A stretch of DNA of 64,000 nt, taken from an uncultured Acidobacteriota bacterium (GTDB lineage: Bacteria > Acidobacteriota > Vicinamibacteria > Fen-336). This document shows positions 22,278 to 53,195 of this stretch, in pieces (position 1 is the stretch's first letter; every line of letters starts with the position of its first letter). The stretch covers positions 74,147 to 138,146 of the forward strand of contig CAVUTB010000018.1 of the NCBI GenBank assembly GCA_963744315.1, in the 5' to 3' direction. Under the pieces are notes generated by a model. It saw nothing but the letters and a program-made list of their open reading frames with translations, did no database searches and was not told where the DNA came from. Position numbers and translations under genes: made by a program.

Positions 22278-22313
22278 GAGATCTGACGTCCCGCCAACCC
22301 AGAATCGACCCTG

Positions 22314-24620: not shown

Positions 24621-30056
<5,436 letters not shown>

Positions 30057-31102: not shown

Positions 31103-31177
31103 GGGTAGCTAGCTCAGTGGGTAGAGCGCCGAGCGGATAACTCGGAGGTCGCAGGTTCGAATCCTGCGGTTTCGTCG
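31103..31177 (+). tRNA. tRNA-like sequence whose acceptor stem does not pair (degenerate tRNA, remnant or assembly error)
   Basis: Canonical D arm (GCTCAGTGGGTAGAGC) and T arm (GCAGG-TTCGAAT-CCTGC). Anticodon arm CCGAG-CGGATAA-CTCGG. The 5' acceptor GGGTAGC is not complementary to the 3' GGTTTCG. Confidence 0.35.
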
Positions 31178-35554: not shown

Positions 35555-36070
35555 CTACGGCTTCTTGGCGTCCTCGGGCGGATCCGAGACCGGGACGTCC
35601 AGCACGACCTTCCAGCTTCCCTCGCTCTGCTTCTGCCAGACGACCACGTAGTGGCCCTTCTCCGTCGCGGCCTTCTTCTTGGCGTCGCTGAGCGTCATCG
35701 AGTAGGTGCCGGTCTCGTAGGCGATGTCGCCCGAGCGCGCGACCACGACCTTGTCGGCCGCGAACGAGAGCGCGAAGTTCGCATCCTTCATCATGCCGCC
35801 GATCGCCTCCCGGATCGCCGCCTTGCCGCTGGGATCGGGCAGGTTCGGCAGCATCACGGTGGCGTCCTCGGCGTAGAAGGAGGTGAACTTCTCCGGGTCC
35901 TTCGCCGCGGCGGCGGCGGCCCAGTCCTTGACGGCCGCGTGGATCGCCGCCTCGTCCTGCGGGCGCGTGTCGGGTGGCGGCGTGGGCAAGGGCGGCGCCG
36001 GCTTCTCCTGCATGCAGGCGACGAGCGTCAGGAGCAGGACGACCAGTCCGGATCGGCCGTGACGGAGCAT
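35555..36070 (-). CDS. Lipoprotein with a SnoaL/NTF2-like (DUF4440-like) fold
   Basis: Signal + lipobox MLRHGRSGLVVLLLTLVAC, with NTF2-like residues downstream. Confidence 0.5.
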   Translation of the reverse strand: MLRHGRSGLVVLLLTLVACMQEKPAPPLPTPPPDTRPQDEAAIHAAVKDWAAAAAAKDPEKFTSFYAEDATVMLPNLPDPSGKAAIREAIGGMMKDANFALSFAADKVVVARSGDIAYETGTYSMTLSDAKKKAATEKGHYVVVWQKQSEGSWKVVLDVPVSDPPEDAKKP

Positions 36071-36139
36071 GGATTCCTCCTCGGGTGGAACGCGCAAACT
36101 TGCTCCCGAAGGGCGTGCCTGTCAACCGGGAGAAGAACG

Positions 36140-36566
36140 TCAGCGCGAGCGCTTTCGGGAGCGCTTTGGCTTCCGCTCTGCGCGCGGCCCCGTCCAGCTC
36201 GGCGAAGACCTCGGCCGCGAGGTGGAAGGCCGAGTTCGCGGCGGGCAGCCCGCAGTAGACGGCCATCTGCAGCAGGACTTCCTTGATCTCCTCGCGGCTG
36301 ACGCCGTTTCGCAGCGCGGCCCGAAGGTGCAGCCCCAGCTCCTCGCTGCGGCCGAGCGCCACCATCGCCGCGAGCGTGATCAGGCTGCGCGTGCGTCTCG
36401 GCAGCCCGGGGCGCGTCCAGATCTCGCCCCAGGCGTAGCGGGTGAGCAGGTCCTGGAACTCGCGGTTGAAGGAGCTGCGCCCGCGCAGGGTCTGCTCGAC
36501 GTAGGCTTCACCCAGGACAGCGCGGCGCACCGCGAGCCCTCGTCGCGACCGCAGGCGCTCGTCCAC
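36140..36566 (-). CDS. pcaC: 4-carboxymuconolactone decarboxylase PcaC (3' end uncertain, probably a frame change)
   Basis: GTG 36566 is 1 bp after the pcaD stop. VRRAVLGEAYV...FQDLLTRYAWGEIWTRPGL...KEVLLQMAVYCGLPAANSAF is a near-canonical PcaC. The ORF has no stop until it overlaps the lipoprotein gene. Confidence 0.7.
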
Positions 36567-36567
36567 G

Positions 36568-37365
36568 TCAGTGGGCTCGCTCGCCGGTCAGGAACCCGAC
36601 GAGCTCCAGGTTGAAGGCGGCCGTGGCCTCGAGGTTGGACAGGTGCGCGGCCGGGAGCTCGACGTAGCGGGCCCCCGCGATGGCGCTCGCGAGCGCCTGG
36701 CCGTCCGCGGGCGGTGTCGCCGGATCGTGGCGGCCCGCGATCACCAGGGTGGGGGACCGGATCGCCCCGAGATCCGCGCGCTCGTCCGCATCGCGCAGCG
36801 CCGCGCAGGCTGCCGCGTAGCCGTGCGCCGGGGTTCTCTCGATGAGCCTTCGCACTCCCGCGACCACCTCGGGCGCCGCCCGGCGAAACTCGGGCGTGAA
36901 CCAGCGCTCGAGGATGGAAGCCGAGACGCTCCTCATGCCGCCCTCGCTCACGCTCTTGATGCGCGCGTTCCAGCTCTCGGCGGTGCCGATGCGCGCGCCC
37001 GTGTTGCTCAGCACGAGCTTGTCGATCCGCGAGGCGGCGTGGGCGCCCAGCCAGATCCCGATCAGGCCGCCCATCGACAGGCCGCAGAAATGGGCGCGCG
37101 CCACGCCGAGGACGTCGAGCAGGCCCAGCACGTCGTTGGCGAGCATCGCGAGCGTCCACGGCTCGGCGGCGAGCGAGGTGCCACCGTGGCCGCGCGTGTC
37201 GTAGCGCAGCACGCGAAAGCTCCGGGCGAGCACCTTCTCCTGCGGATCCCACATCGTGTGGTCCGCGCCGAGCGAGTGGGACAGCACGACGACCGGCGCC
37301 AGCGCCGGACCCGAGAGCTCGTAGAGCACCTTCAGGCCGGAGACCTCGGCCACCGACCTCGTCAC
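36568..37365 (-). CDS. pcaD: 3-oxoadipate enol-lactonase PcaD (alpha/beta hydrolase)
   Basis: GTG overlaps the pcaB TGA (GTGA). VLSHSLGADHTMWDPQ and GLSMGG nucleophile elbow. 266 aa. Confidence 0.8.
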   Translation of the reverse strand: MTRSVAEVSGLKVLYELSGPALAPVVVLSHSLGADHTMWDPQEKVLARSFRVLRYDTRGHGGTSLAAEPWTLAMLANDVLGLLDVLGVARAHFCGLSMGGLIGIWLGAHAASRIDKLVLSNTGARIGTAESWNARIKSVSEGGMRSVSASILERWFTPEFRRAAPEVVAGVRRLIERTPAHGYAAACAALRDADERADLGAIRSPTLVIAGRHDPATPPADGQALASAIAGARYVELPAAHLSNLEATAAFNLELVGFLTGERAH

Positions 37366-38733
37366 GAAGGGGTCTCCTCGGGCGCCCTCGCGCGCACCGC
37401 CGCGTGGCGCGCCAGCACGCGCTCGACCAGCGCGTCGGCGGCGCCGATGTAGCGGCGCGGATCGAACAGGCGCTCGAGCTCCTCGGGGGTGACGTGCCGC
37501 CCGACCGTCGGGGTCGTCGGCGAGCACCTCGCGCAGATGCCGCCCGTCGGCCTGCGCCCGGCGGCACGCCGCCTCCAGCAGCCTTTGCGCTGCGGCGCGC
37601 CCGGCCTTCTCCGCGACCGCCATCTGGACGGCCTCCGCGAACACGAGCCCGTGCGTCGCCTCGAGGTTCGCGGCCATGCGCGCCGGGTCGACGCGCAGCC
37701 CCGCCATCGTCTCGGTCAGGTGATGGAGCGCGCCGGCGGTGAGCCCGACGAGCTCGGGCAGCGTCTCCCACTCGGCGTGCCAGCCGCCGAGCCCGCGCTC
37801 GTCCTCCTGGATCATGGCGCCCAGCATCGTCGCGACGAGGCCGGGAGCGCGCGCGGCGGCCGCGAGGACGACCGCGGCGGAGACCGGGTTCTGCTTGTGC
37901 GGCATCGTCGAGGATCCGCCGCGTCCCTCCGCGACGGGCTCGGAGAGCTCCGCCACCTCCGTCTGGCTGTGCAGCGCGACGTCGCGCGCGATCTTGCCGA
38001 GCGAGCCGGCGAGCAGGCCGAAGGTCGTCGCCACCTCCGCGATGCGGTCGCGGTGGGAGTGCCAGGCGATGTCGGGGAGCGGGAGCCTGAGGTCGTCGGC
38101 GAGCGCCGTGGCCACCTCGCCGCTCCTGGGGCCGAGCGCGGCGAGCGTCCCCACGGCGCCGCCGAGCTGGAGCACGAGGGCGCGGCGCCGCAGCTCGTCG
38201 AACCGCTCGCGGTGGCGCAGGATCGCGTCCAGCCAGCCCGCGGCCTTCAGGCCGAAGGTCGTGGGCACGGCGTGCTGCATCCAGGTGCGGCCGGCGATCG
38301 GCGTCGCCCGGTGCTCGCTCGCGAGGGCCGCGAGCGCGTCCGCCAGCCGGTCGAGCTCGCCCTCGATCACGTCGAGAGCCGCGCGCAGCTGCAGCACCAG
38401 GCCGGTGTCGATCGCGTCCTGGCTGGTCGCGCCCCAGTGGACGAAGCGGGCCGCCTCCGCGTCCTGCTCGCGCACGTGCGCCGTGAGCTGCCGGATCAGC
38501 GGGATCACGAGATTGCCGGCGTTGGCCGCTTCGCGGGCGAGCGCCGGCACGTCGAATCGGTGAACGGCGCAGGCGGACTCGATCATCGAAGCGGCGGAAG
38601 CGGGGATGACGCCCGCCTGCGCTTCGGCGCGCGCGAGCGCGGCTTCGAAGTCGAGCATCGCCTGCAGGCTCGCCCGATCCGAAAAGCTTTCCTGGACGTC
38701 GTCCCAGCGGAACAGCGGCCCGAGCAGGCTCAA
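37362..38733 (-). CDS. pcaB: 3-carboxy-cis,cis-muconate cycloisomerase PcaB (fumarate-lyase superfamily), with a frame change at 37470-37480 from an extra C in a CCCC run
   Basis: LFRWDDV...LQAMLDFEAALARAEAQAGVIP and GSSTMPHKQNP (lyase signature). The corrected C-terminus reads ...LADDPTVGRHVTPEELERLFDPRRYIGAADALVERVLARHAAV. Confidence 0.8.
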
Positions 38734-38740
38734 GGGCACC

Positions 38741-39304
38741 TCAGCAGTCGAAGAATACAGTCTCTCCGGCTCCTTGCAGTACGAGGTTCCACTCGAGCGA
38801 TCCGTCGGGCCGCTTCGCGGCCACCAGGCTCGACCGGCGCGCGGCCGGGGCGAGGCCGAGAACGTGGTCGGTCGCATTGGCGGGCTCGTCCGGGAAGTAC
38901 AGGCGCGTGACGAGCCGCTTCATCAAGCCTCGCGCGAAGACCGAGACGGCGATGTGCGGGGCCTGCATCCCGCCGCGTGGGCCGGGCACCGGTCCCGGCT
39001 TGACGGTCGTGAACTGGAAGCGGCCGGTCGCGTCGGTGCCGACGCGACCGTAGCCCCGGAACGCTGGGTCGACGGGCTTCGTCTGGGTGTCCTCGGGGTG
39101 GGCGTAGCGGCCGTCGGGGTTCGCCTGCCAGAGCTCGAGCACGGCGTCGGGCACGCCCTGGCCGTCGCCGTCCAGGATCCGCCCGCTCACGCCGACGCGC
39201 TCGCCGCGCACGCCGCCGGGCGCGAGATCGTCGCGCAGCAGCCAGTCGAGCCCGATCGAGTAGAACGGCCCGACGGTCTGGGAGGTCGTGGCGACGAGCC
39301 CGCG
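38741..39304 (-). CDS. pcaG: Protocatechuate 3,4-dioxygenase alpha subunit PcaG
   Basis: TTSQTVGPFYSIGL...LELWQANPDGRYAHPED...PHIAVSVFARG. In frame with pcaH with no intervening stop. Confidence 0.75.
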   Translation of the reverse strand, partial: RGLVATTSQTVGPFYSIGLDWLLRDDLAPGGVRGERVGVSGRILDGDGQGVPDAVLELWQANPDGRYAHPEDTQTKPVDPAFRGYGRVGTDATGRFQFTTVKPGPVPGPRGGMQAPHIAVSVFARGLMKRLVTRLYFPDEPANATDHVLGLAPAARRSSLVAAKRPDGSLEWNLVLQGAGETVFFDC

Positions 39305-39990
39305 TCCGGCCTCCATCGGCGTCGCGTCACGGCCGCTCAGGATCATGTCGAAGCGGTAGCCGAGCGCGTGTCCGGGCAGCGTCGTGTCCCAGTCGAACTC
39401 GGAGACCAGCCGGCCGCGGGCCGTCTCGTCGGCCGTGCAGTTGAAGATCGGGTCGGCGGCGAGCAGCGGATCGCCGGGGAAGTACATCTGGGTGACGAGG
39501 CGCGTGGCGAAGGCGGGGCCGAACACCGAGAAGTGGATGTGCGCCGGCCGCCACGCGTTGTCGTGGTTGCCCCACGGATAGGCGCCGGGGCGGATCGTGA
39601 CGACGCGGTAGCGGCCCTCGTCGTCGGTCAGGATGCGGCCGGCGCCGCTGAAGTTCGGGTCGAGCGGAGCATCGTGCTGGTCGACGGCGTGGAGGTAGCG
39701 GCCCGCCGCGTTCGCCTGCCAGACCTCGACGAGCGTGCGCGGCAGCACCTTGCCGTCCTCGTCGAGCACGCGTCCGGCCACGACGATGCGCTCGCCCAGC
39801 GGGGGCTGGGCGTGCTGGCGCGTGAGGTCGCAGGCGCGGATCTCCCGGACCTCGCTCTCGAACGACGGGCCCGTCACCTCGGTGAGCCCGTGCGGGAGCG
39901 GCACGAGCGGCTGCGCCGGCGCGCGCTTGACGGACGACTTGTAGGGCGGGTGCAGGTACTCGGGCTGCGTGCCTGGACGCGGGCGCCGGT
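39305..39990 (-). CDS. pcaH: Protocatechuate 3,4-dioxygenase beta subunit PcaH (start codon not identifiable)
   Basis: PPYKSSVKRAPAQPLV...GERIVVAGRVLDEDGK...EVWQANAAGRYLH...AWRPAHIHFSVFG...MYFPGDPL match the intradiol dioxygenase beta chain. No ATG/GTG/TTG between the receptor stop and the conserved core. Confidence 0.75.
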
Positions 39991-40004
39991 AGCCCGAGAC
40001 GTCG

Positions 40005-42960
40005 CTCAGAATCTCACCCGAAGCCCGATCTGCATCTGGAACGGATTGAAGAGAGCCCGCGGCGTCAGGAAGCCGAGCAGCGGGTTGGGCGTCGCGTTCG
40101 GGTCGTCGCTGCCGAAGTTGGTGTTCAGGTCCTTGACGTTCTCGCGGTTGAAGAGGTTGAAGGCGTCGACGCTCAGCTCCGCGCGGACGCGCTCGCCGAG
40201 CGGGAACTCGCGCGCCACGCGCACGTCCACGGTCGCGTAGGACGGCCCGACGATGCGTGTTGCGGCCCAGCAGCCCGGTGCGGTCGGAGTTCGGGTTGCC
40301 GTCGCCGTTGGCGTCGCTGCCCGCGTACTGCGTGAAGCGCCGCCCGCCCTCCGCGGAGACCAGGAAGCTGAACTTGAAGTCCTTCAGCACCGGCACGTCG
40401 CCCGGCAGCTGGCTCAGGAACGACAGCGTGAAGCGGTGCGGCACGTGCTGGCGCGAGTAGGCGTCCTCGGCGGCGCCGTCGGGGCTCTGCCAGAGGTCGG
40501 CCAGGTTCGCGACCGAGTCGCTGCGCGAGCGCGTGCGCGAGTAGGTGTAGCTCGCGTGGAAGCCGATCCGCCCGCTGAAGCGCTTCTCGAGCTCGAGCGT
40601 CCCGCCGTGGTAGGTCGAGAAGCCCTGGTTGGTCGTGACGAAGAAGTCGCCGAGCGCGGGGTCGCGGCGGCCGCCGGCGAAGCTCGGCTTGCCCGAGGCG
40701 GTCGTCCCGGTCTGGACGGCGTTGAGGTTGGCGCCGTGGATCGGCACCTCGCGCGCCCCGACGTAGAGGTAGCTCGCCGAGACGGCGAGCCCGCTGCCGA
40801 GCTCCTGCGAGAGCTGGACGCTCGCCTGGTGCGCGTACGGGTTCTTCATGTTGCCGTCCATATTGTCCGCGAGACCGGCGCCGGTCGCGGCCGGGACGAC
40901 TCCCAGGGTCAGGAAGGCGAGCGCCGCCGGCGGGGCCGCGGGCCCCGCGACGGTGTTCTGGAAGAAGAGCCCGTGGACCGGCGCTACGCCGGGGAAGAGC
41001 GAGTCGGCGCTCGCGAGGTCGCCGCGCGCGGACCACTGGCTGGCCGTGAGCAGCTGGCCGACGCTGCTCGCGAGACGGTCGGTGAAGAGCCCGTAGCCGG
41101 CGCGGATCACGCCGCGCGGGCTGTAGGCGTACGCCGCGCCCACGCGCGCCTGGATGTTGTTCGTGTCCTTCGAGAGGATGAAGGGCTCCGGGTAGCTCTC
41201 GACGTCGTAGCGCAGCCCGTAGGTGAGGGTCAGCTTCGGCGTGGCTTTCCACTGGTCCTGCGCGAAGACGCCGAAGAGCGAGTGGCTCTCGTCGAAGCGC
41301 GCGTCGTCCTGCCACTGGGACGGGACGGCCTGCGACCACGAAGTGTCGTACAGCGGGCGGACGGGATCGTCCTTGAGCGTCGGCCACCAGAAGACGACCG
41401 GAGTGAAGCTGGCGTACGCGGTCAGGTTCGGAAAGATGATGCGCGCCGGGAAGAACAGGTTCCAGACCGCCTCGTCCTGGATCCGGTTGTAGTCGAGCCC
41501 GAGCTTGAACTGGTGGTTGCCGCGCGTCCAGAGCAGGCTGTCCGTGAGCTGCAGGCGCCGCTCGCGGTAGTGGTCCATGTCGGACGTGGTCTTGCCCATG
41601 ATGATGAGGTTCGAGATCTCGAGCGCCGGCTCGTTGACGGTCGCGTCGAAGTCGTAGCTGCGCTCCGCCCACTGGACGCGCGCCTCGTTGACGAGGCGCG
41701 GTGAGATCACCGACACCAGGTTCGCGACGACGGCCTGGTCGCGCACCTGGTTGTCGCGTGCCGCGCTCGACGCCGGCGAGGCGCGGCCGCCGCCGCCCGG
41801 GAAGTTGAGCGCATCCGAGTTCAGGTAGTTGTAGCGCACCGAGAGCCGGTTGTCGGTCGTCAGCTGGTGGTCGAGCTTGACCAGGAACTGGTCGTAGTCG
41901 TTGGTCTTCACCTGGTCGAGCGTCTCGGGCCGCAGGCCGAAGCGGCTGCGCACGCTGTTGAGCGTCGCGATGTTGTCGATGATCACCTGCGAGAAGCCGT
42001 TCGACTCCTCGCGCCGCTGCCCCTCGTAGTTCAGGAAGTAGAAGTGCGGTCCTTGACGAACGCCCCGCCGAGCGTCGCGCCGTACTGGTGCTGGCGGAGC
42101 ACGTCGGACTCCGGCTGGACCAGCGGCGAGCGCGCGGCGAGCGCGTCGTTCATCCCGAAGTAGTAGCCGGAGCCGTGCGTGTCGTTCTGTCCCGACTTCG
42201 TGACGATGTTGACGAAGCCGCCGAGCGCGCGGCCGTACTCCGCGAGGTAGGTGCTGTTCAGGATCCGGAACTCCTTCGCCGCCTCCTGCGAAGGCGTCGC
42301 CCGCGGCAGGCCGGTGAAGGTCTGGACGTTGTCGGCGCCGTCCACCTGGATGAGCGTGTTGAGCTCGGACTGCCCGCCGAACGAGAGGCGCGGCGCGGCC
42401 GCGACGCCGACGCCGGTGTCGGGCTCCTTGAAGGCTCCGCCGCCGATGTTCTCGCGGCCGATCGCGACGCCGCTCGACAGCTTCACGAAGTCCACGAAAT
42501 TGCGGCCGATGTTGGGCAGCCCCTCGATCTCGCTCGTGCCGACCACGCGCGACAGCTCGGCCTTGGAGCTCTCGACGAGCGAATCCTGGTTGACGACCGT
42601 GACTTCCTCGCTCATCTGGCCCACGCTCATGGTGACGTCGGCGACGCCGAAGCCGCCGACGCTCAGCACGACGCCGCTCCGCACCACGGTCTTGAACCCC
42701 GAGGCTTCGACGCGCAGCTCGTAGCCGCCGGGCTCGAGGTTGGCGAGGCTGTAGCGGCCGGCGGCGTCCGTCGTGTCACGGCGGGTGACGCCGGTCGCGG
42801 GATTGCGCGCGCTGACCGTGGCGCCCGTCAACACGGCGCCCGACTCGTCGCGCACGACTCCCGTGAGCGTGCTGGTGGCCGTCTGGGCCGAGGCGACTCC
42901 CGCCGCCAGCGTCCAGCAGAGGGTGAGGGCCGTCGCCGCGTGAGTCGATCGGAGCGCCAT
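40005..42960 (-). CDS. Oar-like TonB-dependent receptor, first gene of the pca operon, with one frame change near 41990-42030
   Basis: Signal peptide MALRSTHAATALTLCWTLAAGVASA. CarboxypepD_reg-like N-terminal domain (GVVRDESGAVLTGATVSARN). Barrel ending ...FQMQIGLRVRF. Confidence 0.8.
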
Positions 42961-43046
42961 TGCAGCCTCCTAGCACTTGCCCAGGGCGGGAACTCTCGCC
43001 GAAGTTACCGCCACGCCGTCGAGGCTGTCAACCCGAATATCGTTTG

Positions 43047-43068
43047 ACTGGTGCGATAATCGACCAGT
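43047..43068. promoter_or_regulatory. Candidate operator in the divergent pcaR / pca-operon intergenic region
   Basis: ACTGGT-gCGATAATCGa-CCAGT. The 9-bp palindrome CGATAATCG is flanked by 6-bp inverted arms. Confidence 0.35.
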
Positions 43069-43114
43069 ACTGCGGAAGAAGGCGCCGGCCCGGCGGGCGA
43101 GCGACCCGGACTAC

Positions 43115-43865
43115 ATGCTGTCGCTGGCGCGCGGGCTCCAGGTGATCCGCGCCTTCGGCCGCGAGCGGCCGGTGCTCGGGGTCGCCGAGGTGGCGCGGCT
43201 CAGCGCGATGTCGCGCGCCGCCGCCCGCCGCTGCCTGCACACGCTGGGCGTGCTCGGCTACGTCGCGGGAGAAGGCGGGCGCTACGCGCTCGCCCCTCGC
43301 GTGCTGGCGCTCGGCCACGCGTACCTGGGCTCGGCGCCGGTCGCGCAGGCCGCCCAGCCCGTCCTCGAGCGCGTGGCGGAGCGCCTGCACGAGTCGTGCT
43401 CGCTCGCGGTGCTCGACGCCGACGAGATCGTCTACGTGGCGCGCGCGGCCACGCGCCGCATCATGGCGGTGGGCCTCGCCGTGGGCAGCCGCCTGCCGGC
43501 CTACTGCACCTCGATGGGCCGCGTGCTGCTGGCGTTCGCGAGCGACGCCGAGCGCTCGGCCTATCTGCGCCGCGTCAAGCCCGTGCGGCACACGCCCCAC
43601 ACCACGGTCGGCCGGCGCGCGCTCGCCGCCGAGCTCTCGCGCGTGCGCTCGGCCGGCTACGCCATCGTCGACCAGGAGCTGGAGCTGGGCTTGCGCTCGA
43701 TGGCGGTCGCCCGTGCGGCGGCCGGACCAGGCCGTGGTCGCGGCGATGAACGTGGGCGTGCACGCCGCGCGCGTCGAGAGCGAGACGATGCGGCGCGAGT
43801 ATCTGCCGGTGCTGCTGGAGGCGGCCGAGGAGGTGGGGCTCGCCCTCGCGCACCGGCTGTCCTAG
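43115..43865 (+). CDS. pcaR: IclR-family regulator PcaR/PcaU-like, with a frame change at ~43715 from an extra base in a CCC run
   Basis: DYMLSLARGLQVIRAF ... LGYV... is an IclR HTH followed by an effector domain. The corrected C-terminus reads ...MAVPVRRPDQAVVAAMNVGVHAARVE...LALAHRLS, TAG at 43863-43865. Start at ATG 43115 is tentative. Confidence 0.7.
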
Positions 43866-43907
43866 GTGCGCCGAGCCCCCGAGTACTTGGCTTTATCATC
43901 TCCCTCG

Positions 43908-45008
43908 ATGCCGGCACCCTATCGCGCCGACCAGGTGGGCAGCTTCCTGCGGCCGGGCGAGCTGCTCGCGGCGCGCAGCTCGATGGCCGCCGAGCCGGAG
44001 AAGCTGCGGGCGCTCGAGGATCGCCACGTGCTGCGCGTGATCGAGAAGCAGAAGGAGCTCGGCTTCGAGGTCTTCACCGACGGCGAGCTGCGGCGCCGGA
44101 ACTTCATGAGCGACTTCACGGACGCGGTGGAGGGGTTCGACCTCGGCGACGCGGTCGCCCGCTCGTGGCAGGCCGACGTCGCCAAGGCCGCAGCCACCAG
44201 CAAGGTGGCCGGCATCGTGACGGGCAAGCTGCGCGCCGTGCGGCGGCTGACCGGCCACGAGCTGCCGTTCCTGAAGGCCCACAGCCCCGGCCCGATCAAG
44301 GTCACGCTGCCGAGCGCCACGCAGTTTCCTGCGATCTCCTGGAAGCGCGGGATCACGGATGCCGTCTATCCGGACCAGCTGGCGCTGCTCGCCGACATCG
44401 TCGCGATCCTGAAGGCCGAGCTCGCCGCGATAGCCGCGGAAGGTGCCAGCTACATCCAGATCGACGCGCCGCGCTACAGCTACTTCATCGACCCCAAGTG
44501 GCGCGAGTGGATCGAGACGGAGATGCGCATCGCGCCGGACACGCTGCTCGACGCTTCGATAGAGGCCGACAACGCCTGCCTCGAGGCCGCGCGGCGCCCG
44601 GGCGTCACGCTGGCGATGCACCTGTGCCGCGGCAACAACCGCAGCCACTGGTACGCCGAGGGCGGCTACGACGGGATCGCCGAGCGGCTCTTCTCCCGGA
44701 TGGCGGTGGACCGCTTCCTGCTCGAGTACGACGACGCGCGCTCGGGCAGCTTCGAGCCGCTGCGCTTCGTGCCGAAGGGCAAGGCCGTCGTGCTCGGCCT
44801 CGTGAGCAGCAAGCTGCCGCAGCTCGAGGATCCCGACCAGCTCGCGCGCCGCATCGACGAGGCCGCCCGTCACGTGCCGCTCGAGAACCTCGCCTTGAGC
44901 CCGCAGTGCGGCTTCGCCTCCACCATGGAAGGCAACCTGCTCACCGAGGACGAGCAGTGGGCGAAGCTGCGGCTCGTGGTCGAGACGGCGCGGCGCGTCT
45001 GGAGCTGA
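43908..45008 (+). CDS. Cobalamin-independent methionine synthase (MetE C-terminal / UroD-fold) family protein
   Basis: ADQVGSFLRP...IQIDAP...HLCRGN... resemble the MetE catalytic-domain zinc-site context. 366 aa, between pcaR and pobA. Confidence 0.7.
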   Translation: MPAPYRADQVGSFLRPGELLAARSSMAAEPEKLRALEDRHVLRVIEKQKELGFEVFTDGELRRRNFMSDFTDAVEGFDLGDAVARSWQADVAKAAATSKVAGIVTGKLRAVRRLTGHELPFLKAHSPGPIKVTLPSATQFPAISWKRGITDAVYPDQLALLADIVAILKAELAAIAAEGASYIQIDAPRYSYFIDPKWREWIETEMRIAPDTLLDASIEADNACLEAARRPGVTLAMHLCRGNNRSHWYAEGGYDGIAERLFSRMAVDRFLLEYDDARSGSFEPLRFVPKGKAVVLGLVSSKLPQLEDPDQLARRIDEAARHVPLENLALSPQCGFASTMEGNLLTEDEQWAKLRLVVETARRVWS

Positions 45009-45024
45009 GCCGGGGGCGGATCAG

Positions 45025-46206
<1,182 letters not shown>

Positions 46207-46224
46207 GCCGAGCTCGTGCCGGCG

Positions 46225-47086
46225 CTAGCCCGGCGCCAGGCCGAGCAGGCGTGCCGCGTTCTCCTTCAGGATCAGCGGCCGCACCTCGTCCTTGACGGCG
46301 AGCGTCTCGAAGTCCGCGAGCCAGCGGTCGGGCGTGAGGAGCGGATAGTCCGATCCGAACAGCACCTTGCGCTTGAGCAGCGTGTTCGCGTACTGCACGA
46401 GCGTCGGCGAGAAGTACTTCGGCGACCAGCCCGAGAGGTCGATGTGGACCTGCGGCTTGTGCAGGCAGATCGAGATCGCCTCGTCCTGCCAGGGGAAGGA
46501 CGGGTGCGCCAGGATGATCGGCAGGTCGGGAAAGTCGACCGCGACGTCGTCGATCGGCATCGGGTCGCCGTACTTGAGGCGCACGCCGCCCCCGCCGCGC
46601 ATGCCGGAGCCGATCCCGCTGTGCCCGGTGTGGAAGATCACCGGCAGCCGCGCCTCGGCGAACACCTCGTAGAGCGGATACGCGAGGCGATCGTTCGGGA
46701 CGAACTGCTGGAGCGGCGGGTGCAGCTTGAGCCCGCGCACGCCGCCCCTCGCGAGGAGCCGGCGGGCCTCGTCGACCGCCGCCGTGCCGCGCGTCGGATC
46801 CAGGCTCACGAAGGCGAGCGCCACGTCCGGCGTTCTCGGCCGCGAAGTCGAGCACGGCGTCGTTCGTCACCTGCGGGCGCCCGCTCAGCCGCTCGTCCAC
46901 GGTGAACACGACGCAGGCCATCCGCCGCGAGCGGTAGTACTCGGCGACCTTGTCCCAGTCGGGGTCGGCGTCGCTTCCGAAGTACTTGCGCGGCCGCCTC
47001 GTCGGTCGCGCCGCGGTCGCCGGGGGCGTGCAGGTGCACGTGGACGTCGATCGCCGCCAGGCGGGAGACGTCGAGTGCCTGGCCCA
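46225..47086 (-). CDS. Amidohydrolase-2 family protein (LigW/ACMSD-like metal-dependent hydrolase/decarboxylase), with frame changes
   Basis: N-terminus MGQALDVSRLAAIDVHVHLH. C-terminal KLHPPLQQF...IFHTGHS...ILAHPSFPW...LFGSDYP. Confidence 0.6.
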
Positions 47087-47101
47087 TCGGCCGCGGCTCG
47101 C

Positions 47102-48977
47102 TCACGCGCCTGCCTCGAGGACGATCACGTGGGCAGCGGCGCGGGCGGCGTAGAGCCCCTCGACCCAGCGCCGCGCGGTTCTCGAGCACCGCCTTCTGGT
47201 TGACCGAGCCCTTGTCGGTGAGCTCGCCGGCGTCGAGCGAGGGCGGCTGGTCGAGCAGGACGGCGCGCGCGACGAGAGTCGTGCTGCCGGTGCTCTCGCC
47301 CGCGACCGCCTGCAGGATCTGGCGGAACCTCGAGAGCACGCGCGGATCGTCGAAGAGCGTCCGCGCCGGGGCCGCGGCCTCGAGCTCGGGGCACAGTCCG
47401 CGGCACAGCGCGCGGTTCGGAAACACGAGCGCCGACACGAACGCCCGATCGTGGCCCGCGATCACGACATCCTGTACGTAGCCCGCCCCATGCGCCAGGA
47501 TCCGCGCGCGCAGCGCGCCGACGTGGACCCACGTTCCCGTCGAGAGCTTGAAGTCCTCGGCGAGCCGGCCGTCGAAGACGAGCCCCTTCGCGGGGTCGCC
47601 CGCGTCGACGCAGCGCATCGCGTCGCCCAGCCGGTAGAAGCCCTCCGCGTCGAAGGCCGCCTTCGTGAGCGCGTCGTCCCCGAAGTAGCCCGGAGTGACG
47701 TTCGGGCCGCGCACGCGGGCCTCGAGCTTCTCGGCCACGGGAGCCAGCTTGAGCTCGAGGCCCGGGACGGGAAAGCCCAGGAAGCCGGCCCAGGCGCCGG
47801 CGCGGGCGGTGCAGAGCGCGAAGGGCGCGGTCTCGGTGGCGCCCATGCCCGTCACCCAGAGCAGCTCCTCGCCGCAGCTCTCGACCGCCAATCCCTGGAG
47901 CTCGTCGAAAACCCGCTGCGTCAGGCCGGCCGCGGCGTAGAAGAACAGCTTGAGCTTCGCGAAGAAGCGCTCGCGCAGCACCGGGTCCGCGCGCAGGTGC
48001 GGCAGCAGCATCTCGTAGGTGCGCGGCACGGTGAAGTGCGCCGTGGCGGACACCTCGCGCAGGTTCCGGACCGTGGCGTCGAAGAGGCCGGGCAGCGGAC
48101 GGCCTTCGTCGATGTAGAGCGTGCCGCCGTGGTGGAGCACGATGCCGAAGTTGTGGTTGCCGCCAGCCGTGTGGTTCCAGGGCAGCCAGTCGCAGAGCAC
48201 GGGCGGCTCCTCGGCCAGGAACGGGAACACGGCCTCGAGCATGGCCTGATTGGAGCAGAGCATCCGCTGCGTGTTGACGACGCCCTTCGGCCGGCCGGTC
48301 GAGCCCGAGGTGTAGAGGATCTTCGCGATCGTGTCGGGGCCGACCCTCGCGCGAGCCTCGTCGACGGCGGCGGTGACCTCGGTCTCGGCGAGCGCCGCGA
48401 ACGGGGTCGCTCGCATCCCCTCGGGCGCCGACACCGACGTGACGAGCTCCGCGCCCGCCGGCAGCACGGCGGCGAGCGCCCGCTCGAAGTCCCGGCCCTC
48501 TGCCGCGAACACGAGCCCCGGGCTCAGGCGGCCCACGATCTGGCGCAGCGTGGCGTGGTCGCGCGCCTGCAGCGAGTAGGCCGTCGCGAGCGGGGCGTAC
48601 GGCACTCCGCAGTGCATCGCCGCGAGCGCGAGCAGCGCGTGCTCGATGCTGTTCCCCGAGAGGATCACGAGCGGCCGCTCGGCCGAGAGCCGCCGCTCGA
48701 GGAGCGCTGCCGCGATCCGCCGCACGGCTGCGAGCGCCTCGGCGTACGTGAGCGTGCGCCAGCCAAAGGCGGCGTCGCGCTGCGCCAGGAAAGCGCGATC
48801 GCCGGCGCGCTCGGCCCAGTGCTCGAGCCGTTCGGTGATCCGCCTCGGGTAGGGCCCGAGCGTGTGCCGCGACTGCAGGTAGAGGACGCCGTCCGAGCCT
48901 CGGCGCACGGCGGTGTCGGCTGCCGCGACGTTCACCGGCCGCACGCGCCGCGCGGTCGCGGGCGCGTTCGAGCTCAC
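47102..48977 (-). CDS. Feruloyl-CoA-synthetase-like AMP-dependent acyl-CoA ligase (Fcs type), with a frame change ~47150 in a GGG run
   Basis: GTG start overlaps the upstream TGA (GTGA). AMP-binding motif ILYTSGSTGRPKGV. C-terminus TDKGSVNQKAVLENRAAL(V)EGLYAARAAAHVIVLEAGA. Confidence 0.7.
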
Positions 48978-51125
48978 GGCCGCGCCTCCGCCGCCTCGAG
49001 CCTCCGGTCGTGCTCGCGGAAGCTCGAGCCCTCGCGTGCGAGGCGCGCGAGGAGCGGCGCCGGCTCGAAGCGCGGGCCGTGATCGCGCTGGAGCGCCAGC
49101 AGCCGCTCGTGGATCCTGCCGAGCCCGACGCTGTCGGCGTAGTAGAGCGGACCGCCGCGGAAGGCGGGGAAGCCGTAGCCGGTCAGGTAGATGACGTCGA
49201 TGTCCGCGGCACGCTGGGCGACGCCCTCGCCCAGCACGCGCGCGCCTTCGTTCACGAGCGCGTAGATCGTCCGCTCGAGGATCTCCTCGCGGGAGATCGC
49301 GCCGTCGCTCGATGCGGTTCGCGCGGGCGACCGACTCCACGAGCGCCGTCACCTCGGGATCCGGGATCGGCTTGCGATCCTCTCCGTAGCGGTACCAGCC
49401 CTTGCGGACCTTCTGACCCAGACGGCCCAGCTCGACCAGCAGGTCGGCGACGAGGGGCTTGCGCCCGTCCTCGCCCTCGAACTGGCGCAGCTCCTTGCGG
49501 ACGCGCCAGGCGACGTCGAGCCCGCCCATGTCGTCGACCGCGAAGATCCCCATCGCCATGCCGAAGTCCGTGAGCACCTGGTCCACCTGCTCCGGCGAGG
49601 CGCCTTCCTCGGCCAGGAACTGCGCCTCGTACATGTACGGGAACATGATGCGGTTGCCGACGAAGCCCGGCGCGTTGCGCACGACCACGCCCACCTTGGA
49701 GAGGCGCTTCGCGAACTGGAGCGCAGCCGCGACGACGCCTTGGCCCGTGGCCACGCCGCGCACGATCTCGACGAGCCGCATCACGTGGGCCGGGCTGAAG
49801 AAATGCAGGCCGATCGACCGACTCGGGCACTCCCGAGACCGCGCCGAGCTGGTCGATGTCGAGCGTCGAGGTGTTGCTGGCCAGGATGGCGCCGGGCCGC
49901 GCCTGACGCCCGATCTCGCCGAACACCTCCTTCTTGATCGTCATGTTCTCGTACACCGCCTCGATCACGAGGTCGGCCGACGCGCAGCCGTCGTAGCCCG
50001 AGACGCTCCGGATCCGCGCGAAGCGCTCCGCGGCCGCGGCGGCCGTCAGGCGTCCGCGATCCACCGACGACTGGTAGCTGCGCTGGATGGTGGAGAAGCC
50101 GCGCGTGAGCGCCTCCGTGCTGCCGTCGCTCAGGCTCACGCGCAGGCCGGCGTTGGCGCAGGCCATCGCGATCGACGCGCCCATCGTGCCCGCCCCCAGG
50201 ATCGCCACCTGCTCGATCGCGGCCGGCGTTCCGTTTCCCGCGAGTCCCGGCAGCTTGGCGGCGCTCCGCTCGGCCAGGAACCCGTGCAGCATGGCGCCGG
50301 GCCTGCTCGGACCGCACGCAGCCGAGCGCCAGCGCGCGCTCGTGACGGCAGCCCTCGTCGAAGGGGAGCGTCGCCGCGGCCGCGATCGCCTGGATCGCCG
50401 CGAGCGGCGCGGTCTGATGGGCGCGCGTCTTGCGCGCCTGCTCGCGAGCCGCGGCGAAGAGCGGCTCGTTCGACGCGGCGTCGCCGAGCTTCTCGGTCCG
50501 CTCGCGGGTCCGCGGGTGGGGCGCGCCGCGCCGTGCCGCGTCGCGGGCGAAGGCGACCGCGCTCTCGATGACGTCGCCGTCGAGGACGGCGTCCACGAGC
50601 CCGGCGCGGCAGGCGTCCTCCGCCCCGATCGGCTTGCCGCCCACCACCATCTCGAGCGCTTTCGCGACGCCGACGAGGCGAGTCAGCCGTTGCGTTCCCT
50701 CCGCGCCCGGAATGATGCCGAGGTTCACCTCGGGCAGGCCCAGGCGCGCCTCGGGATCGGCCAGGCGATAGTGCCCGGCCATCGCCAGCTCGAGGCCGCC
50801 GCCGAGCGCCGTGCCGTTGAGCGCGATCACGATCGGCTTGCGCGAAGTCCTCGACGAGCTGCAGCAGCCCGTGGAAGTCGGGCGGCTCGACGGCGTGGTC
50901 GAGGACCGCCGCCTCGAGCTCGCGGATGTCGGCGCCGGCCGCGAACGTCCGCCCGCTGCCCGTGATCACGACCGCGCGCAGCTCCGGATCCGTTCCCAGG
51001 CGGCCGAGGGCCGAGGCGAGCGCGCTCCGCACCGGCTCCGCGAGCGCGTTCACGGGCGGGTGGTCGATGCGGACGACGGCGACGTCGCCCCGGCGCTCGA
51101 GCTGGACGAGCTCAGGCGAGCCCAT
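48974..51125 (-). CDS. Bifunctional enoyl-CoA hydratase / 3-hydroxyacyl-CoA dehydrogenase (FadJ/FadN-like), with at least 4 frame changes
   Basis: Crotonase N-terminus (VVRIDHPPVNAL...FAAGADI...LNGTALGGGLELAMA). NAD-binding VAILGAGTMGASIA. C-terminal dehydrogenase dimerisation domain ...RLVEIVRG... Parts fall in ORFs 50136..51131, 49781..50830, 49252..50292 and 48974..49255. Confidence 0.7.
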
Positions 51126-52416
51126 GGCCACCGTGCATCAGCGCGTAGTCCCTGCGGTAGGGGCGCCACGTCGCGAAGAAGAGGATCGCCGAGACGAGCG
51201 ACGCCGTGCCGACGGTCAGCGCGAGCGACCAGCCGACCATCTGCCCGCTCCGGAACACGTAGTCGTTCAGCAGTCCCGGCAGCGCGGGGCCGAGGATCAG
51301 GCCGCCGAGGTTCAGCGTGAAGACCTGCAGCGCCCCGATCTGGCCGCGCACCTGGTTCGGCAGGATCAGCTGCAGCGAGGCGTAGACGCTGCCGATCGGC
51401 ATGGCGAGGAAGAAGAAGGCGGGGCCCAGCAGCGCGAGCTGCATCTCGAGCGCGCGGCATCGACAAGGACAGCGTGAAGAAGGCGCCGGCGCAGAGCGTC
51501 GCCAGCACGCCGACCCGCAGCGGCGCTTCGGCGATCCCGCGGCGCTGCCAGTAGTCCGCGAGCCGCCCGCCGCTGTAGGACCCGAGCGAGGCCGGTGGCG
51601 AGAGAGATGACGCCGAGCGTCACGCCGGCCTGGCGGAGCGACCAGCCGTGCACGCCGCACGAAGTAGGTCGGCAGCCACGCCTGCTGGGCGTAGTTGCAG
51701 AGCGCCTGGGCCGCGAAGCCGAAGCAGATCCCGGCCACCGAGGCGAGCCGCAGCTTCACCTCGCGCGCGACGTCCGCGAGGCGGAGCCGCGCCGGCTCGC
51801 CGCCCGTGGTGCGCAGCAGGTCCTTTCGCGGCGGCTCGCGGATCGTGAGGGCCAGGAGCGCCACCAGCAGGCCCGGCAGCCCGACGATCAGGAACGTGAG
51901 CCGCCAGGAGCCGACGGCGCCGATGATGAGCCCGCCCAGGATCAGGGCCAGCCCGGAGCCGAAGAAGATGCCCATCGAGAAGATGCTGAGCGCGGTCGCC
52001 AGCCGCCCCTTGGGGAAGTAGTCCGAGAGCAGCGAGAAGGCGGACGGCGAGAGCGTCGCTTCGCCGATCCCCACGCCCATCCTCGCGAGGAACAGCGTGG
52101 CGAAGCTGCGCGCTCCCGCGCAGAGCGTGGTCATCAGGCTCCAGCAGAAGATGCCCGCGGCCACCAGGTTGCGCCGGTTCTTGGTGTCGGCGATGCGGCC
52201 CATCGGAATCCCGAGCAGCGTGTAGAAGACGCCGAACGCCAGCCCCTGCAGCAGGCCGATCTGGGTGTCGCTGATCCCGAGCTCGAGCTTGATCGGCGTC
52301 ACCAGCAGGCCGAGGATCTGGCGGTCGATGAACGACAGCGTGTTGCACGCCATCAGGACGATGGCGACGTACCAGGCGTGGCGCAGCTCGCGGTCGGCTT
52401 CGACGCTTGTTTCCAT
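51112..52416 (-). CDS. MFS transporter, with about 3 frame changes between 51360 and 51700
   Basis: Twelve-transmembrane pattern. MFS motif A-like GRIADTKNRR. N-terminus LSFIDRQILGLL. Confidence 0.65.
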   Translation of the reverse strand: METSVEADRELRHAWYVAIVLMACNTLSFIDRQILGLLVTPIKLELGISDTQIGLLQGLAFGVFYTLLGIPMGRIADTKNRRNLVAAGIFCWSLMTTLCAGARSFATLFLARMGVGIGEATLSPSAFSLLSDYFPKGRLATALSIFSMGIFFGSGLALILGGLIIGAVGSWRLTFLIVGLPGLLVALLALTIREPPRKDLLRTTGGEPARLRLADVAREVKLRLASVAGICFGFAAQALCNYAQQAWLPTYFVRRARLVAPPGRRDARRHLSRHRPRSGPTAAGGSRTTGSAAGSPKRRCGSACWRRSAPAPSSRCPCRCRALEMQLALLGPAFFFLAMPIGSVYASLQLILPNQVRGQIGALQVFTLNLGGLILGPALPGLLNDYVFRSGQMVGWSLALTVGTASLVSAILFFATWRPYRRDYALMHGGHGLA

Positions 52417-52456: not shown

Positions 52457-53067
52457 TCATAGACGATGGGCGATCTTGTCGGCCATGCGCACCAGCTCGG
52501 CGAGCGAGTGGGCGCCCATCTTCTGCATCACGCGGGAGCGGTGCACCTTGACGGTCTTCTCGGTGGTGCCGAGCCGGGCGCCCACCTGCTTGTTGAGCAG
52601 GCCCGTGACGATCAGGCCGAACACGTCGCGCTCGCGCGGAGTGAGCGTGCCGAGCCGCTCCTGCAGCTGCGCGCGCTCGGCGCGCTGGATGCGGCGCTCG
52701 CCGTCCTGCTCGAGGCCCCGCGCCACGGCGGCGAGCAGCGTCTCGTCCGAGACCGGCTTCTCCAGGAAGTCGACGGCCCCGCTCTTCATCGCCTGCACGC
52801 CGCTCTGCACGTCGGCGCGGCCGCTGATGAAGACGAGCGACAGCTCGATGCCGCGCTCGAGCAGCAGCTCCTGGAGGTCGAGCCCGCTCAGGCCGGGCAT
52901 CTTCAGGTCGACGACCAGGCAGGCGGGGAGATCGTCGAGCTCGACGCCGATCAGGAAATCCTCGGCCGTGCCGAACGCGGTCGTCTGATATCCCGCGTTG
53001 CGCAGGACGCGCGTGAGCGCGCGTCGCACGCCGGCATCGTCGTCGACGAGGTAGACACGCGTGCCCG
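52457..53067 (-). CDS. LuxR/FixJ-family response regulator (REC + HTH)
   Basis: TTG 53067. VYLVDDDAGVRRAL...VVDLKMPGLSG. C-terminal LTPRERDVFGLIVTGLLNKQVGARLGTTEKTVKVHR. Confidence 0.7.
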
Positions 53068-53195
53068 GCTGAGCCAAGTCTCTTCCCCGACCCCATACTA
53101 GCACCGGGCTCGCCCGTGAACGGATCGCGGACGCCCGCAGGACAGAACGCTCAGGACCTGAACGCGCCAGTCGACGCAAGGGCGGCTAAGTCCTG

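Follow-up and report, generated by a model that had tools for sequence, protein, structure and literature searches.

A putative chromosomal gene cluster for hydroxycinnamate and hydroxybenzoate degradation via protocatechuate in an uncultured Acidobacteriota bacterium

A stretch of 64,000 nucleotides from an uncultured Acidobacteriota bacterium (assembly GCA_963744315.1, contig CAVUTB010000018.1, positions 74,147 to 138,146; hereafter the window) carries three adjacent sets of genes which probably make up a chromosomal catabolic cluster of three transcription units, serving the uptake of hydroxycinnamates and hydroxybenzoates and their degradation via protocatechuate. The first set, on the minus strand, begins with a sensor kinase and a response regulator and continues with an MFS transporter, a FadB-like bifunctional enoyl-CoA hydratase/3-hydroxyacyl-CoA dehydrogenase, a CoA ligase of the feruloyl-CoA synthase (Fcs) family and an amidohydrolase of the CouO/Atu1421 type. 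The second, on the plus strand, consists of the IclR-type regulator gene pcaR, a gene for a MetE-like protein and pobA. The third, on the minus strand and divergent from pcaR, runs from a TonB-dependent receptor through a fused pcaHG gene to pcaB, pcaD and pcaC. An earlier reading of the DNA letters (the original prediction) had named gene families in this region together with their order and strands, and Pfam and NCBIfam scans find all of them present as it stated. Its description of pcaH and pcaG as two genes separated by a junction does not hold, however, since the two form one continuous frame with neither a stop nor a separate start.

The window has a G+C content of about 72%, and plain lists of open reading frames (ORFs) are swamped by spurious frames. 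Genes were called by third-position G+C and codon-model Viterbi segmentation, by Pfam and NCBIfam scans, and by comparison with homologous loci in publicly available genomes and metagenomes. Genes with broken frames were missed or cut short by a strict third-position G+C caller, and Viterbi segmentation with homologue-guided alignment was used instead. Proteins described as repaired are frame-corrected sequences; PcaB, PcaC, PobA and the hydratase/dehydrogenase were scored on NCBIfam in that form. Counts across acidobacterial loci refer to the best 80 of 580 relatives of the MetE-like gene obtained in a genome scan, which are 64–77% identical to it and derive almost entirely from metagenome-assembled genomes of Acidobacteriota. 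Statements that a domain is missing from the window cover its codon-bias-supported ORFs, scanned with Pfam and NCBIfam.

The arrangement from the kinase to pcaHG is conserved. It is fully syntenic on a 20.7-kb contig, JGI 3300056388, in which all of the genes are intact and follow the order histidine kinase, response regulator, MFS transporter (433 residues), FadB-like protein (709), ligase (624) and amidohydrolase (292), with PobA (395), the MetE-like protein (366) and the IclR regulator (265) on the opposite strand, and then the receptor (975) and fused PcaHG. A metagenome contig, L087, which is 96.5% identical to the window across 8.2 kb in a nucleotide alignment, carries the left half of the arrangement with intact MFS and hydratase/dehydrogenase genes. 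Because the pair of kinase and response regulator keeps the same position on both of these contigs, the functional cluster probably reaches position 55910, past the upper limit of 52416 set by the original prediction. Its lower limit of 35555 is the stop codon not of pcaC but of a gene that had not been listed and that encodes a DUF4440/SnoaL-like protein recognised by Pfam. The membership of this gene in the cluster is uncertain; a TTGACA hexamer in the gap between it and pcaC (36098–36180) suggests that it has its own promoter. A SnoaL_3/DUF4440 gene also lies about 4 kb from pcaHG in locus L086, and an NTF2-fold gene is found near pca-type genes on a Rhodococcus opacus plasmid, L082. Even very close relatives differ in how the cluster is arranged: in L088, whose PcaHG is 97% identical to that of the window, the MetE-like gene and pcaHG are immediate divergent neighbours, and neither receptor nor pcaR separates them.

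The region had also been described as an island. Its G+C content is uniform, at 0.69–0.74 both within the cluster and to either side, scans of the window turned up no domain of an integrase or transposase, and the sole tRNA gene of the window lies about 4.4 kb from the cluster with unrelated genes between. Even G+C, the lack of mobile-element genes and the lack of a flanking tRNA give no indication of horizontal acquisition as an island, and the region should be read as a cluster. The tRNA in question, tRNA-Ile (GAT) at 31104–31176 on the plus strand, is the only RNA gene in the window; its Rfam match spans model positions 8–63 of 71, and ARAGORN calls a full tRNA.

Within the side-chain genes, the MFS transporter has weak matches to aromatic-acid/H+ symporter models of NCBIfam. 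The hydratase/dehydrogenase holds the ECH_1, 3HCDH_N and 3HCDH domains all in one gene, with their Pfam fragments spread over four frames, and once repaired the protein matches FadB/FadJ models along its entire length, with 470 bits where the cut-off is 869. An intact protein of 715 residues (P0121) shares 92% identity with it, and it occurs intact in relatives at 709–715 residues. It is predicted to be a dedicated paralogue which replaces the separate hydratase and dehydrogenase of known systems. Over 95% of its length the ligase shares 50–55% identity with proteins annotated as feruloyl-CoA synthases, one of them encoded on a Ralstonia megaplasmid, and a search of the PDB with it returned only distant malonyl-CoA and benzoate-CoA ligases. 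The amidohydrolase shares 55–60% full-length identity with plasmid-borne homologues in Terrarubrum, Rhodococcus opacus and Rhizobium, which sit among genes for feruloyl-CoA synthase or AMP-ligase, hydratase, dehydrogenase and MarR proteins; the Rhizobium homologue is annotated as a 4-hydroxyphenyl-beta-ketoacyl-CoA hydrolase. The closest entry in a PDB search was the uncharacterized 3IRS alone. The adjacency of ligase and amidohydrolase genes recurs in loci L042 and L046.

From these family relationships the amidohydrolase is assigned as a 4-hydroxyphenyl-beta-ketoacyl-CoA hydrolase of the CouO/Atu1421 type. CouO, which belongs to the amidohydrolase superfamily, catalyses the last step of p-hydroxycinnamate deacetylation in Rhodococcus jostii RHA1, yielding the aromatic acid (PMC4737184), and its homologue HpeF has been proposed to carry out the same step in acetovanillone catabolism (PMC9618137). 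As an enzyme of this type would perform the chain shortening, no thiolase is needed for it. The original prediction had pointed to fadBA (placed at 26.7–30 kb) as a possible source of a thiolase. These genes, at 26.8–30.1 kb, were rejected as part of the pathway: they encode canonical FadB and FadA equivalogs, and the thiolase falls below the PcaF cut-off. The fadBA operon is adjoined by two convergent sulfatase-TPR paralogues, at 22308–24620 on the plus strand and 24617–26680 on the minus strand, the second of which is frame-broken.

The genes of this unit are tightly packed. The MFS and hydratase/dehydrogenase genes overlap by 14 nucleotides, the hydratase/dehydrogenase gene meets the ligase gene in GTGA, from which the ligase takes its GTG start, and the ligase and amidohydrolase genes are separated by a 14-nucleotide spacer. 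In the pca operon single-nucleotide spacers separate pcaG from pcaB and pcaD from pcaC, whilst pcaB and pcaD share GTGA once the frame is corrected, the GTG of pcaD overlapping the TGA of pcaB. The claim of the original prediction that junctions are of the GTGA or 1-bp kind is thus borne out at pcaG/pcaB, at pcaB/pcaD in corrected form, at pcaD/pcaC and at hydratase/ligase; the receptor/pcaH junction is instead CTGA.

The enzymes of the protocatechuate branch are well matched by equivalog models. The PcaH part of the fused dioxygenase scores 325.4 bits on TIGR02422 (cut-off 296.4) and the PcaG part 206.7 on TIGR02423 (cut-off 126.25). Repaired PcaB reaches 663 bits on NF006554 (cut-off 595) and 446 on TIGR02426 (cut-off 356), and repaired PobA scores 584 bits on PRK08243 (cut-off 351) and, on TIGR02360, 510.5, just short of the cut-off of 538.7. 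The TGA of pcaC in the corrected frame occupies 36142–36140. The receptor at the head of the operon is identical to an intact acidobacterial receptor, from L027, at 562 of 962 residues. As had been predicted, pcaIJ and pcaF are absent from the window: no CoA_trans domain was found in any of its codon-bias-supported ORFs, and its only thiolase is the FadA equivalog, which scores 615 bits on the FadA model (cut-off 519) and 356 on that of pcaF (cut-off 597). PcaIJ-like genes occur in 15 of the 80 related acidobacterial loci, and PcaIJ and PcaF would have to be encoded elsewhere in the genome.

The fusion of PcaH and PcaG is genuine and typical of the lineage. The joint reads ...DATPME-AGRG-LVATTSQ..., with neither stop nor start codon between DATPME and LVATTSQTVGPF. 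More than 60 protein clusters of 416–441 residues found in a protein search cover 99–100% of the 422-residue frame, and one protein that is 97% identical to the window PcaHG (P0001) has the same AGRG joint; it is on these matches that the fusion is taken as real. Read-through caused by a sequencing error was rejected, as no single indel creates a stop at this place and the fusion is common in relatives. An alignment of pcaHG with that of L088 contains no indels.

Two regulatory systems accompany the cluster. The IclR regulator is a putative member of the PcaR/PcaU/PobR family: a partial fragment of 216 residues scores 274.2 bits on TIGR02431 (cut-off 284.75). The divergent region between its gene and the receptor gene contains a putative operator of two boxes, the second of which, GCGATAATCGA, has just one exact match in the window. 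Of 40 related loci, 32 have either CGATAATCG or its complement CGATTATCG in the 400 nucleotides upstream of the IclR gene; the background frequency is 0.037 per kb. We take CGATAATCG to resemble the PcaR box of Pseudomonas putida. PcaR probably binds these conserved boxes between the pcaR and receptor units. A search of the divergent promoter for inverted repeats returned none; the operator was found as a direct motif and by its conservation across loci. The kinase and response regulator genes are co-directional with the MFS operon and lie directly upstream of it, the stop of the response regulator gene preceding the MFS start by 40 nucleotides; L087 and JGI 3300056388 have the same two genes in this place.

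The MetE-like gene lies 42 nucleotides after the pcaR stop and 16 nucleotides before pobA, co-directional with both. Its product is not the two-domain MetE of about 750 residues but a single domain, and it falls below all NCBIfam cut-offs for methionine synthases (278 bits on PRK06520, cut-off 313; 31.9 on NF003556, cut-off 541). The closest solved structure is the uncharacterized structural-genomics entry PDB 1YPX, at 3e-63. His238, Cys240, Glu273 and Cys334 are invariant in 81 aligned MetE-like sequences, and by motif position we take them to be the zinc ligands of MetE. Within 10 kb of the MetE-like gene in the 80 loci were found pcaHG (39/80), a PcaR-type IclR gene (40/80), an Oar-type receptor (25/80), pobA (13/80), a CouO-type amidohydrolase (10/80) and an Fcs-type ligase (7/80). 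In L070–L079 the gene directly follows the IclR gene, as it does in the window, and in L074 it heads a co-directional row of MetE-like gene and pcaHGBDC. Other frequent neighbours are aldehyde dehydrogenase, pyrroloquinoline quinone (PQQ) dehydrogenase, a second ligase, a DUF5938 protein, PcaIJ-like transferases and a Meth_synt_2 paralogue. Among the conserved neighbours in these loci there is no folate-dependent, Rieske or corrinoid partner. Around distant homologues of about 40% identity in cultured bacteria, on plasmids of Rhodococcus and Rubrobacter, no genes of aromatic catabolism were found, and the library that was searched returned no paper linking the family to protocatechuate, vanillate, O-demethylation or aromatic catabolism. 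Control by a riboswitch was rejected, given that one tRNA is the only Rfam family to reach threshold in the window.

Two further observations concern the surroundings of this gene in other genomes. In 13 of the 80 loci (for example at 8108–9112 of L014) a second, shorter Meth_synt_2 paralogue of about 334 residues is encoded no more than 7 kb from the pca-linked gene, and the two proteins may function together as a pair. In some 13–20 of the 80 loci, depending on the gene, the MetE-like gene is found near genes for a saccharopine-dehydrogenase-like/DUF5938 protein, a 522-residue AMP-ligase, a PQQ dehydrogenase with a cytochrome c domain and an aldehyde dehydrogenase (L042 12338–17261, L032 8751–12521 and L043 17012–18130). 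This set, which is absent from the window, looks like a further, undescribed module for aromatic side chains.

Table 1. Genes, putative operator and frame breaks of the cluster, in window coordinates
Feature	Position	Strand	Basis and remarks
DUF4440/SnoaL-like (NTF2-fold) protein, 180 residues	35555..36097	-	Pfam DUF4440 and SnoaL families; TIGR02246 47.5 bits; downstream of pcaC
PcaC, 4-carboxymuconolactone decarboxylase, ~141 residues	36140..36566	-	TIGR02425 168.2 bits (cut-off 155.7), repaired
pcaC frame break (+1)	near 36185	-	stop codon lost from frame; raw ORF runs to 35373
PcaD, 3-oxoadipate enol-lactonase, 265 residues, intact	36568..37365	-	TIGR02427 300.3 bits (cut-off 255.85)
PcaB, 3-carboxy-cis,cis-muconate cycloisomerase, ~458 residues	37362..38739	-	NF006554, TIGR02426
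pcaB frame break (+1)	near 37512	-	homologue-guided alignment; uncorrected frame reads through into pcaD
Fused PcaH(beta)-PcaG(alpha) protocatechuate 3,4-dioxygenase, at least 422 residues	38741..40009	-	TIGR02422, TIGR02423
TonB-dependent receptor, Oar type, ~975 residues	40006..42960	-	Pfam CarboxypepD_reg and OMP_b-brl_4 barrel; first gene of the pca operon
Receptor frame breaks	near 42044 (1-nt deletion), near 40249 (+1)	-	frameshift-aware alignment
Putative PcaR operator	43034..43062		CGAATATCG at 43034-43042 and CGATAATCG at 43054-43062, in the 109-nt divergent region
Putative PcaR/PcaU/PobR-family IclR regulator, ~264 residues	about 43070..43865	+	Pfam HTH_IclR and IclR_C
IclR gene frame break (+1)	near 43709	+	homologue-guided alignment
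MetE-like protein, "cobalamin-independent methionine synthase II family", 366 residues, single domain, intact	43908..45008	+	Pfam Meth_synt_2 1.3e-14
PobA, 4-hydroxybenzoate 3-monooxygenase, 393 residues	45025..46206	+	PRK08243
pobA frame breaks (+1 each)	near 45610, 45713, 45771	+	blastx, Viterbi, homologue-guided alignment
Amidohydrolase-2, CouO/Atu1421 type, ~287 residues	46225..47087	-	Pfam Amidohydro_2; homologue context
Amidohydrolase frame breaks (+1 each)	near 46991, 46828	-	
Fcs-type AMP-forming CoA ligase, ~624 residues	47102..48977	-	NCBIfam PRK12582
Ligase frame break (+1)	near 47165	-	stop codon hidden
Bifunctional enoyl-CoA hydratase/3-hydroxyacyl-CoA dehydrogenase, FadB architecture, ~715 residues	48974..51125	-	Pfam
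Hydratase/dehydrogenase frame breaks (+1 each)	50839, 50296, 49815, 49300	-	protein-guided and L087 nucleotide alignment
MFS transporter, 433 residues repaired	51112..52416	-	Pfam MFS_1; first gene of the side-chain operon
MFS frame breaks (+1 each)	51653, 51586, 51454	-	protein-guided and L087 nucleotide alignment
Response regulator, receiver and LuxR/GerE helix-turn-helix, FixJ-like	52457..53104	-	Pfam; NCBIfam FixJ 181 bits, below cut-off
Sensor histidine kinase, MASE1-GAF-PAS-HisKA-HATPase, 904 residues, intact	53196..55910	-	Pfam

Many of these genes are broken in the sequence as given. By blastx, frameshift-aware protein-to-DNA alignment and nucleotide alignment, about 18 single-base frame changes were located in nine of the 15 protein genes of the cluster (Table 1). 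Pfam domains of single genes are split over several frames, domains of adjacent genes are joined in one ORF, and blastx against the ORFs of the 80 related loci places frame changes within most cluster genes. All but one of the events are +1 insertions, the exception being the deletion in the receptor gene. In pobA the three insertions net back into frame, and the ORF looks whole yet contains about 55 codons out of frame. Across the MFS and FadB-like genes the window and L087 differ only by seven +1 insertions, at the very sites predicted by the protein-guided method. The homologue-guided alignments of the cluster contain no in-frame stop codon in any coding segment and no larger deletion, and the segments past the breaks keep a strong codon bias and 56–92% amino-acid identity to intact homologues.

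The frame-change problem is window-wide, though uneven. It is densest in a second Oar-type TonB-dependent receptor gene at 19324–22168 on the plus strand, which has a CarboxypepD_reg-like N-terminus and barrel motifs and falls into about 25 frame segments; tandem repetition was considered as a cause of the periodic frame changes at 19.2–22.2 kb and rejected, as no repeats were found. Frame changes without a nearby stop occur also at 1–1717, 3906–4579, 13994–15126, 17400–18228, 18757–19221, 24617–27908, 33729–33938 and 60479–61285. The unrelated genes affected are those for a HEAT-repeat protein, a DUF4388 protein, a dicarboxylate symporter, a CBM9 protein, a nucleoside hydrolase, one of the sulfatase-TPR paralogues and an aldo-keto reductase, together with the 3' end of fadA. 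A related 4.7-Mb contig assembled from long reads, L089, with 71.8% G+C, shows 12 frameshifts, at other positions, in the orthologous receptor gene.

If the cluster is taken as intact, its three units connect into a single route. In the first, side-chain shortening would begin with import of the acid by the MFS transporter. The ligase would convert the hydroxycinnamate to hydroxycinnamoyl-CoA, the hydratase/dehydrogenase would carry this to 4-hydroxyphenyl-beta-ketopropionyl-CoA, and the amidohydrolase-superfamily hydrolase would cleave the beta-ketoacyl-CoA to acetyl-CoA and the aromatic acid without a thiolase. The expected products are 4-hydroxybenzoate from p-coumarate, vanillate from ferulate and protocatechuate from caffeate. 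In the second unit PobA would hydroxylate 4-hydroxybenzoate to protocatechuate. In the third, the receptor may serve uptake across the outer membrane, and fused PcaHG with PcaB, PcaD and PcaC would take protocatechuate to beta-ketoadipate. The steps from hydroxycinnamate through aryl-CoA and 4-hydroxybenzoate to protocatechuate and the Pca enzymes are those of the original prediction, and they are supported by the family assignments and by conserved synteny. The final part had been put differently, as a B-D-C series ending in "beta-ketoadipate enol-lactone products"; the textbook order is PcaB, PcaC, PcaD, and the product is beta-ketoadipate.

The frame breaks very probably represent uncorrected errors of a long-read assembly, as judged from the assembled sequence, and the real cluster genes of the organism are probably intact. 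This is concluded because nearly all of the events are insertions, in-frame stops are lacking, codon bias and similarity persist past the breaks, and unrelated genes are hit. The opposing explanation, that the cluster is a truly decayed remnant in which the breaks are real mutations and the pathway is no longer used, draws on several features of the record. More than half of the protein genes (nine of 15) are broken as given. Neither pcaHG nor, perhaps, pcaR has a canonical start codon: no ATG, GTG or TTG lies upstream in frame of pcaHG, whose first conserved codon is a CTG at 40009 overlapping the receptor TGA (CTGA), where L089 has a GTG and a spacer, and for pcaR the length seen in relatives (265 residues in JGI 3300056388) is reached only from a CTG in frame at 43070; a TTG at 42977 is the one canonical start in frame and would put the operator boxes inside the coding region. 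The breaks are moreover clustered rather than evenly spread over the window, and several genes of 2.2–2.7 kb have none. At 54355 the window keeps the intact 904-residue kinase frame, whilst L087, an otherwise intact contig of Illumina type, splits the kinase into 498 and 376 residues (6775–6807); not every single-base difference can for this reason be put down to an error in the window. The missing start codons, the uneven spread and the difference at 54355 are counted against the explanation adopted here. Decay nevertheless seems very unlikely when set against a series of events with a single insertion bias and neither in-frame stop nor larger deletion, codon bias and 56–92% identity retained downstream of the breaks, the same kind of break in unrelated genes, with about 25 in one gene of 2.9 kb, and the same signature elsewhere in the receptor gene of the long-read assembly L089. 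Bacterial mutation is, besides, generally biased toward deletions.

With the genes taken as intact, what they act on also admits of other readings. The ligase and hydrolase might take ready-made aroyl-acetates (hydroxyphenyl-beta-ketopropionates) derived from acetophenone-type or beta-aryl-ether lignin fragments, as do HpeE and HpeF in Rhodococcus rhodochrous GD02, or a non-aromatic acyl substrate, with the FadB-like enzyme serving another purpose. Most acidobacterial loci have the ligase and amidohydrolase genes without a nearby hydratase/dehydrogenase gene; as the FadB-like gene stands beside the pair in only one of the 80 loci (L046), the pair may in most of them act on ready-made beta-keto acids rather than on hydroxycinnamates. 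The genes near the pair there encode PQQ alcohol dehydrogenases, aldehyde dehydrogenases and a second ligase, and HpeE and HpeF are themselves a ligase and a CouO homologue which act directly on a beta-keto acid (PMC9618137). The assignments in the window carry weak points of their own: the ligase scores 747 bits on PRK12582, just below the cut-off of 777, NCBIfam has no model for the amidohydrolase, and domain scans of the window found no vanillate demethylase of a known type, leaving the ferulate branch incomplete as read. The MarR domain that is typical of known hydroxycinnamate clusters was likewise not found in the window ORFs. For the locus described here a beta-keto acid substrate is nonetheless judged quite unlikely: translational coupling ties the FadB-like gene to its neighbours on both sides, in the window as in close relatives, by the 14-nucleotide overlap upstream and GTGA downstream, the ligase belongs to the Fcs family whereas the closest characterized homologue of HpeE is of the acetoacetyl-CoA-synthetase type (PMC9618137), and the cluster adjoins pobA, whose substrate is the product expected from p-coumarate. 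A looser interpretation would make the three units neighbours by chance or by loose clustering, with the two-component system and the receptor serving unrelated purposes. The modules do occur in many different combinations across acidobacterial loci, and the region upstream of the MFS operon yielded no PcaR box. Yet the substrates and products predicted for the three units connect in sequence, and a relative with a FadB-like protein of only 87% identity retains the complete order from kinase to pcaHG, so that either form of this interpretation appears extremely improbable.

Of all the components, the MetE-like protein alone has no obvious role. It is conceivable, albeit unlikely, that it is a new aryl-methyl-ether demethylase which uses a zinc-activated thiol acceptor (homocysteine or another thiol) to convert vanillate or a related methoxy-aromatic acid to protocatechuate. 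If so, demethylation would need no oxygen, tetrahydrofolate or cobalamin, the step missing from the ferulate branch would be supplied within the cluster, and the position of the gene between pcaR and pobA, together with its linkage to pcaHG in about half of the 80 loci, would be explained. Alternatives are that the protein recycles methyl-folate arising from a demethylase encoded elsewhere, or that it performs thiol chemistry on a pathway intermediate.

The pathway in itself adds little, as beta-oxidative deacetylation of hydroxycinnamates and the protocatechuate branch are both well described. The record, on the other hand, is instructive: in this high-G+C sequence probable +1 errors fragment most cluster genes, which automated annotation would call pseudogenes or false fusions, and because the genes are fragmented by such single-base insertions, inferring lost function from the record is unsafe. 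Another point of interest is that a highly conserved MetE-like protein with a predicted zinc site is consistently pca-linked in soil Acidobacteriota. If it turns out to act as a demethylase or in some other funnelling step, this would bear on the turnover of lignin-derived carbon by abundant soil bacteria.

Among known systems, the closest parallels to the side-chain module are found in Rhodococcus and Agrobacterium. The cou cluster of Rhodococcus jostii RHA1 (CouL, CouM/N, CouH, CouO, CouT and CouR) feeds the beta-ketoadipate pathway and, like the scheme proposed here, carries out CoA-dependent beta-oxidative deacetylation of p-hydroxycinnamates in which an amidohydrolase-superfamily hydrolase, not a thiolase, acts last (PMC4737184). 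A Rhodococcus opacus homologue of the window amidohydrolase, with 60% identity, lies beside genes for an AMP-ligase, an SDR protein and a MaoC dehydratase. The two systems differ in several respects. The window ligase is of the Fcs type, whilst CouL is reportedly a 4-coumarate-ligase-like enzyme; one protein of FadB architecture stands in for the separate enzymes of hydration and oxidation; an IclR regulator and a two-component system are found instead of a MarR protein (CouR), which is missing from the window; and the cluster is physically joined to pobA and pca and includes an outer-membrane receptor. The SpG8-1b region of Agrobacterium fabrum C58 (Atu1415–Atu1422) encodes the same series, with feruloyl-CoA synthase Atu1416, enoyl-CoA hydratase Atu1417, beta-hydroxyacyl-CoA dehydrogenase Atu1415 and Atu1421, which cleaves the beta-keto-thioester, followed by conversion to protocatechuate (PMC7797058). 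A Rhizobium plasmid with a gene set similar to that of A. fabrum encodes an amidohydrolase 55% identical to that of the window. The regulators in A. fabrum are of the MarR and GntR families, in contrast to the IclR regulator and two-component system of the window, which has in addition the MetE-like gene.

The downstream part corresponds to the protocatechuate branch of Pseudomonas putida and Acinetobacter baylyi, with the same five Pca enzymes, which pass the equivalog models, PobA (PRK08243) and a putative regulator of the PcaR/PcaU/PobR family. It departs from that branch in the fusion of PcaH with PcaG, in the location of pcaIJ and pcaF outside the window, in the TonB-dependent receptor at the head of the operon and in the MetE-like gene between pcaR and pobA. 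The non-beta-oxidative, CoA-dependent Fcs-Ech-Vdh pathway of Pseudomonas for ferulate has in common with the window a ligase of the Fcs family, but domain scans of the window found no separate hydratase/lyase (Ech) and no aldehyde dehydrogenase. Because a dehydrogenase domain and a CouO-type hydrolase are present in place of Ech and Vdh, a beta-oxidative route is indicated. The MetE-like protein, for its part, shares with proteins consisting of only the MetE C-terminal domain (PDB 1YPX) a fold family, a length of about 370 residues and the His-x-Cys...Glu...Cys positions; it differs from them in scoring below the methionine-synthase cut-offs, in having no riboswitch, in lying inside the pcaR–pobA unit and in being linked to pcaHG in many Acidobacteriota. 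The cluster is thus a variant of well-known systems and not a new kind, in a lineage whose architecture departs from the models in its fused PcaHG, its FadB-type bifunctional enzyme, a receptor heading the pca operon, and regulation by IclR and two-component proteins in place of MarR.

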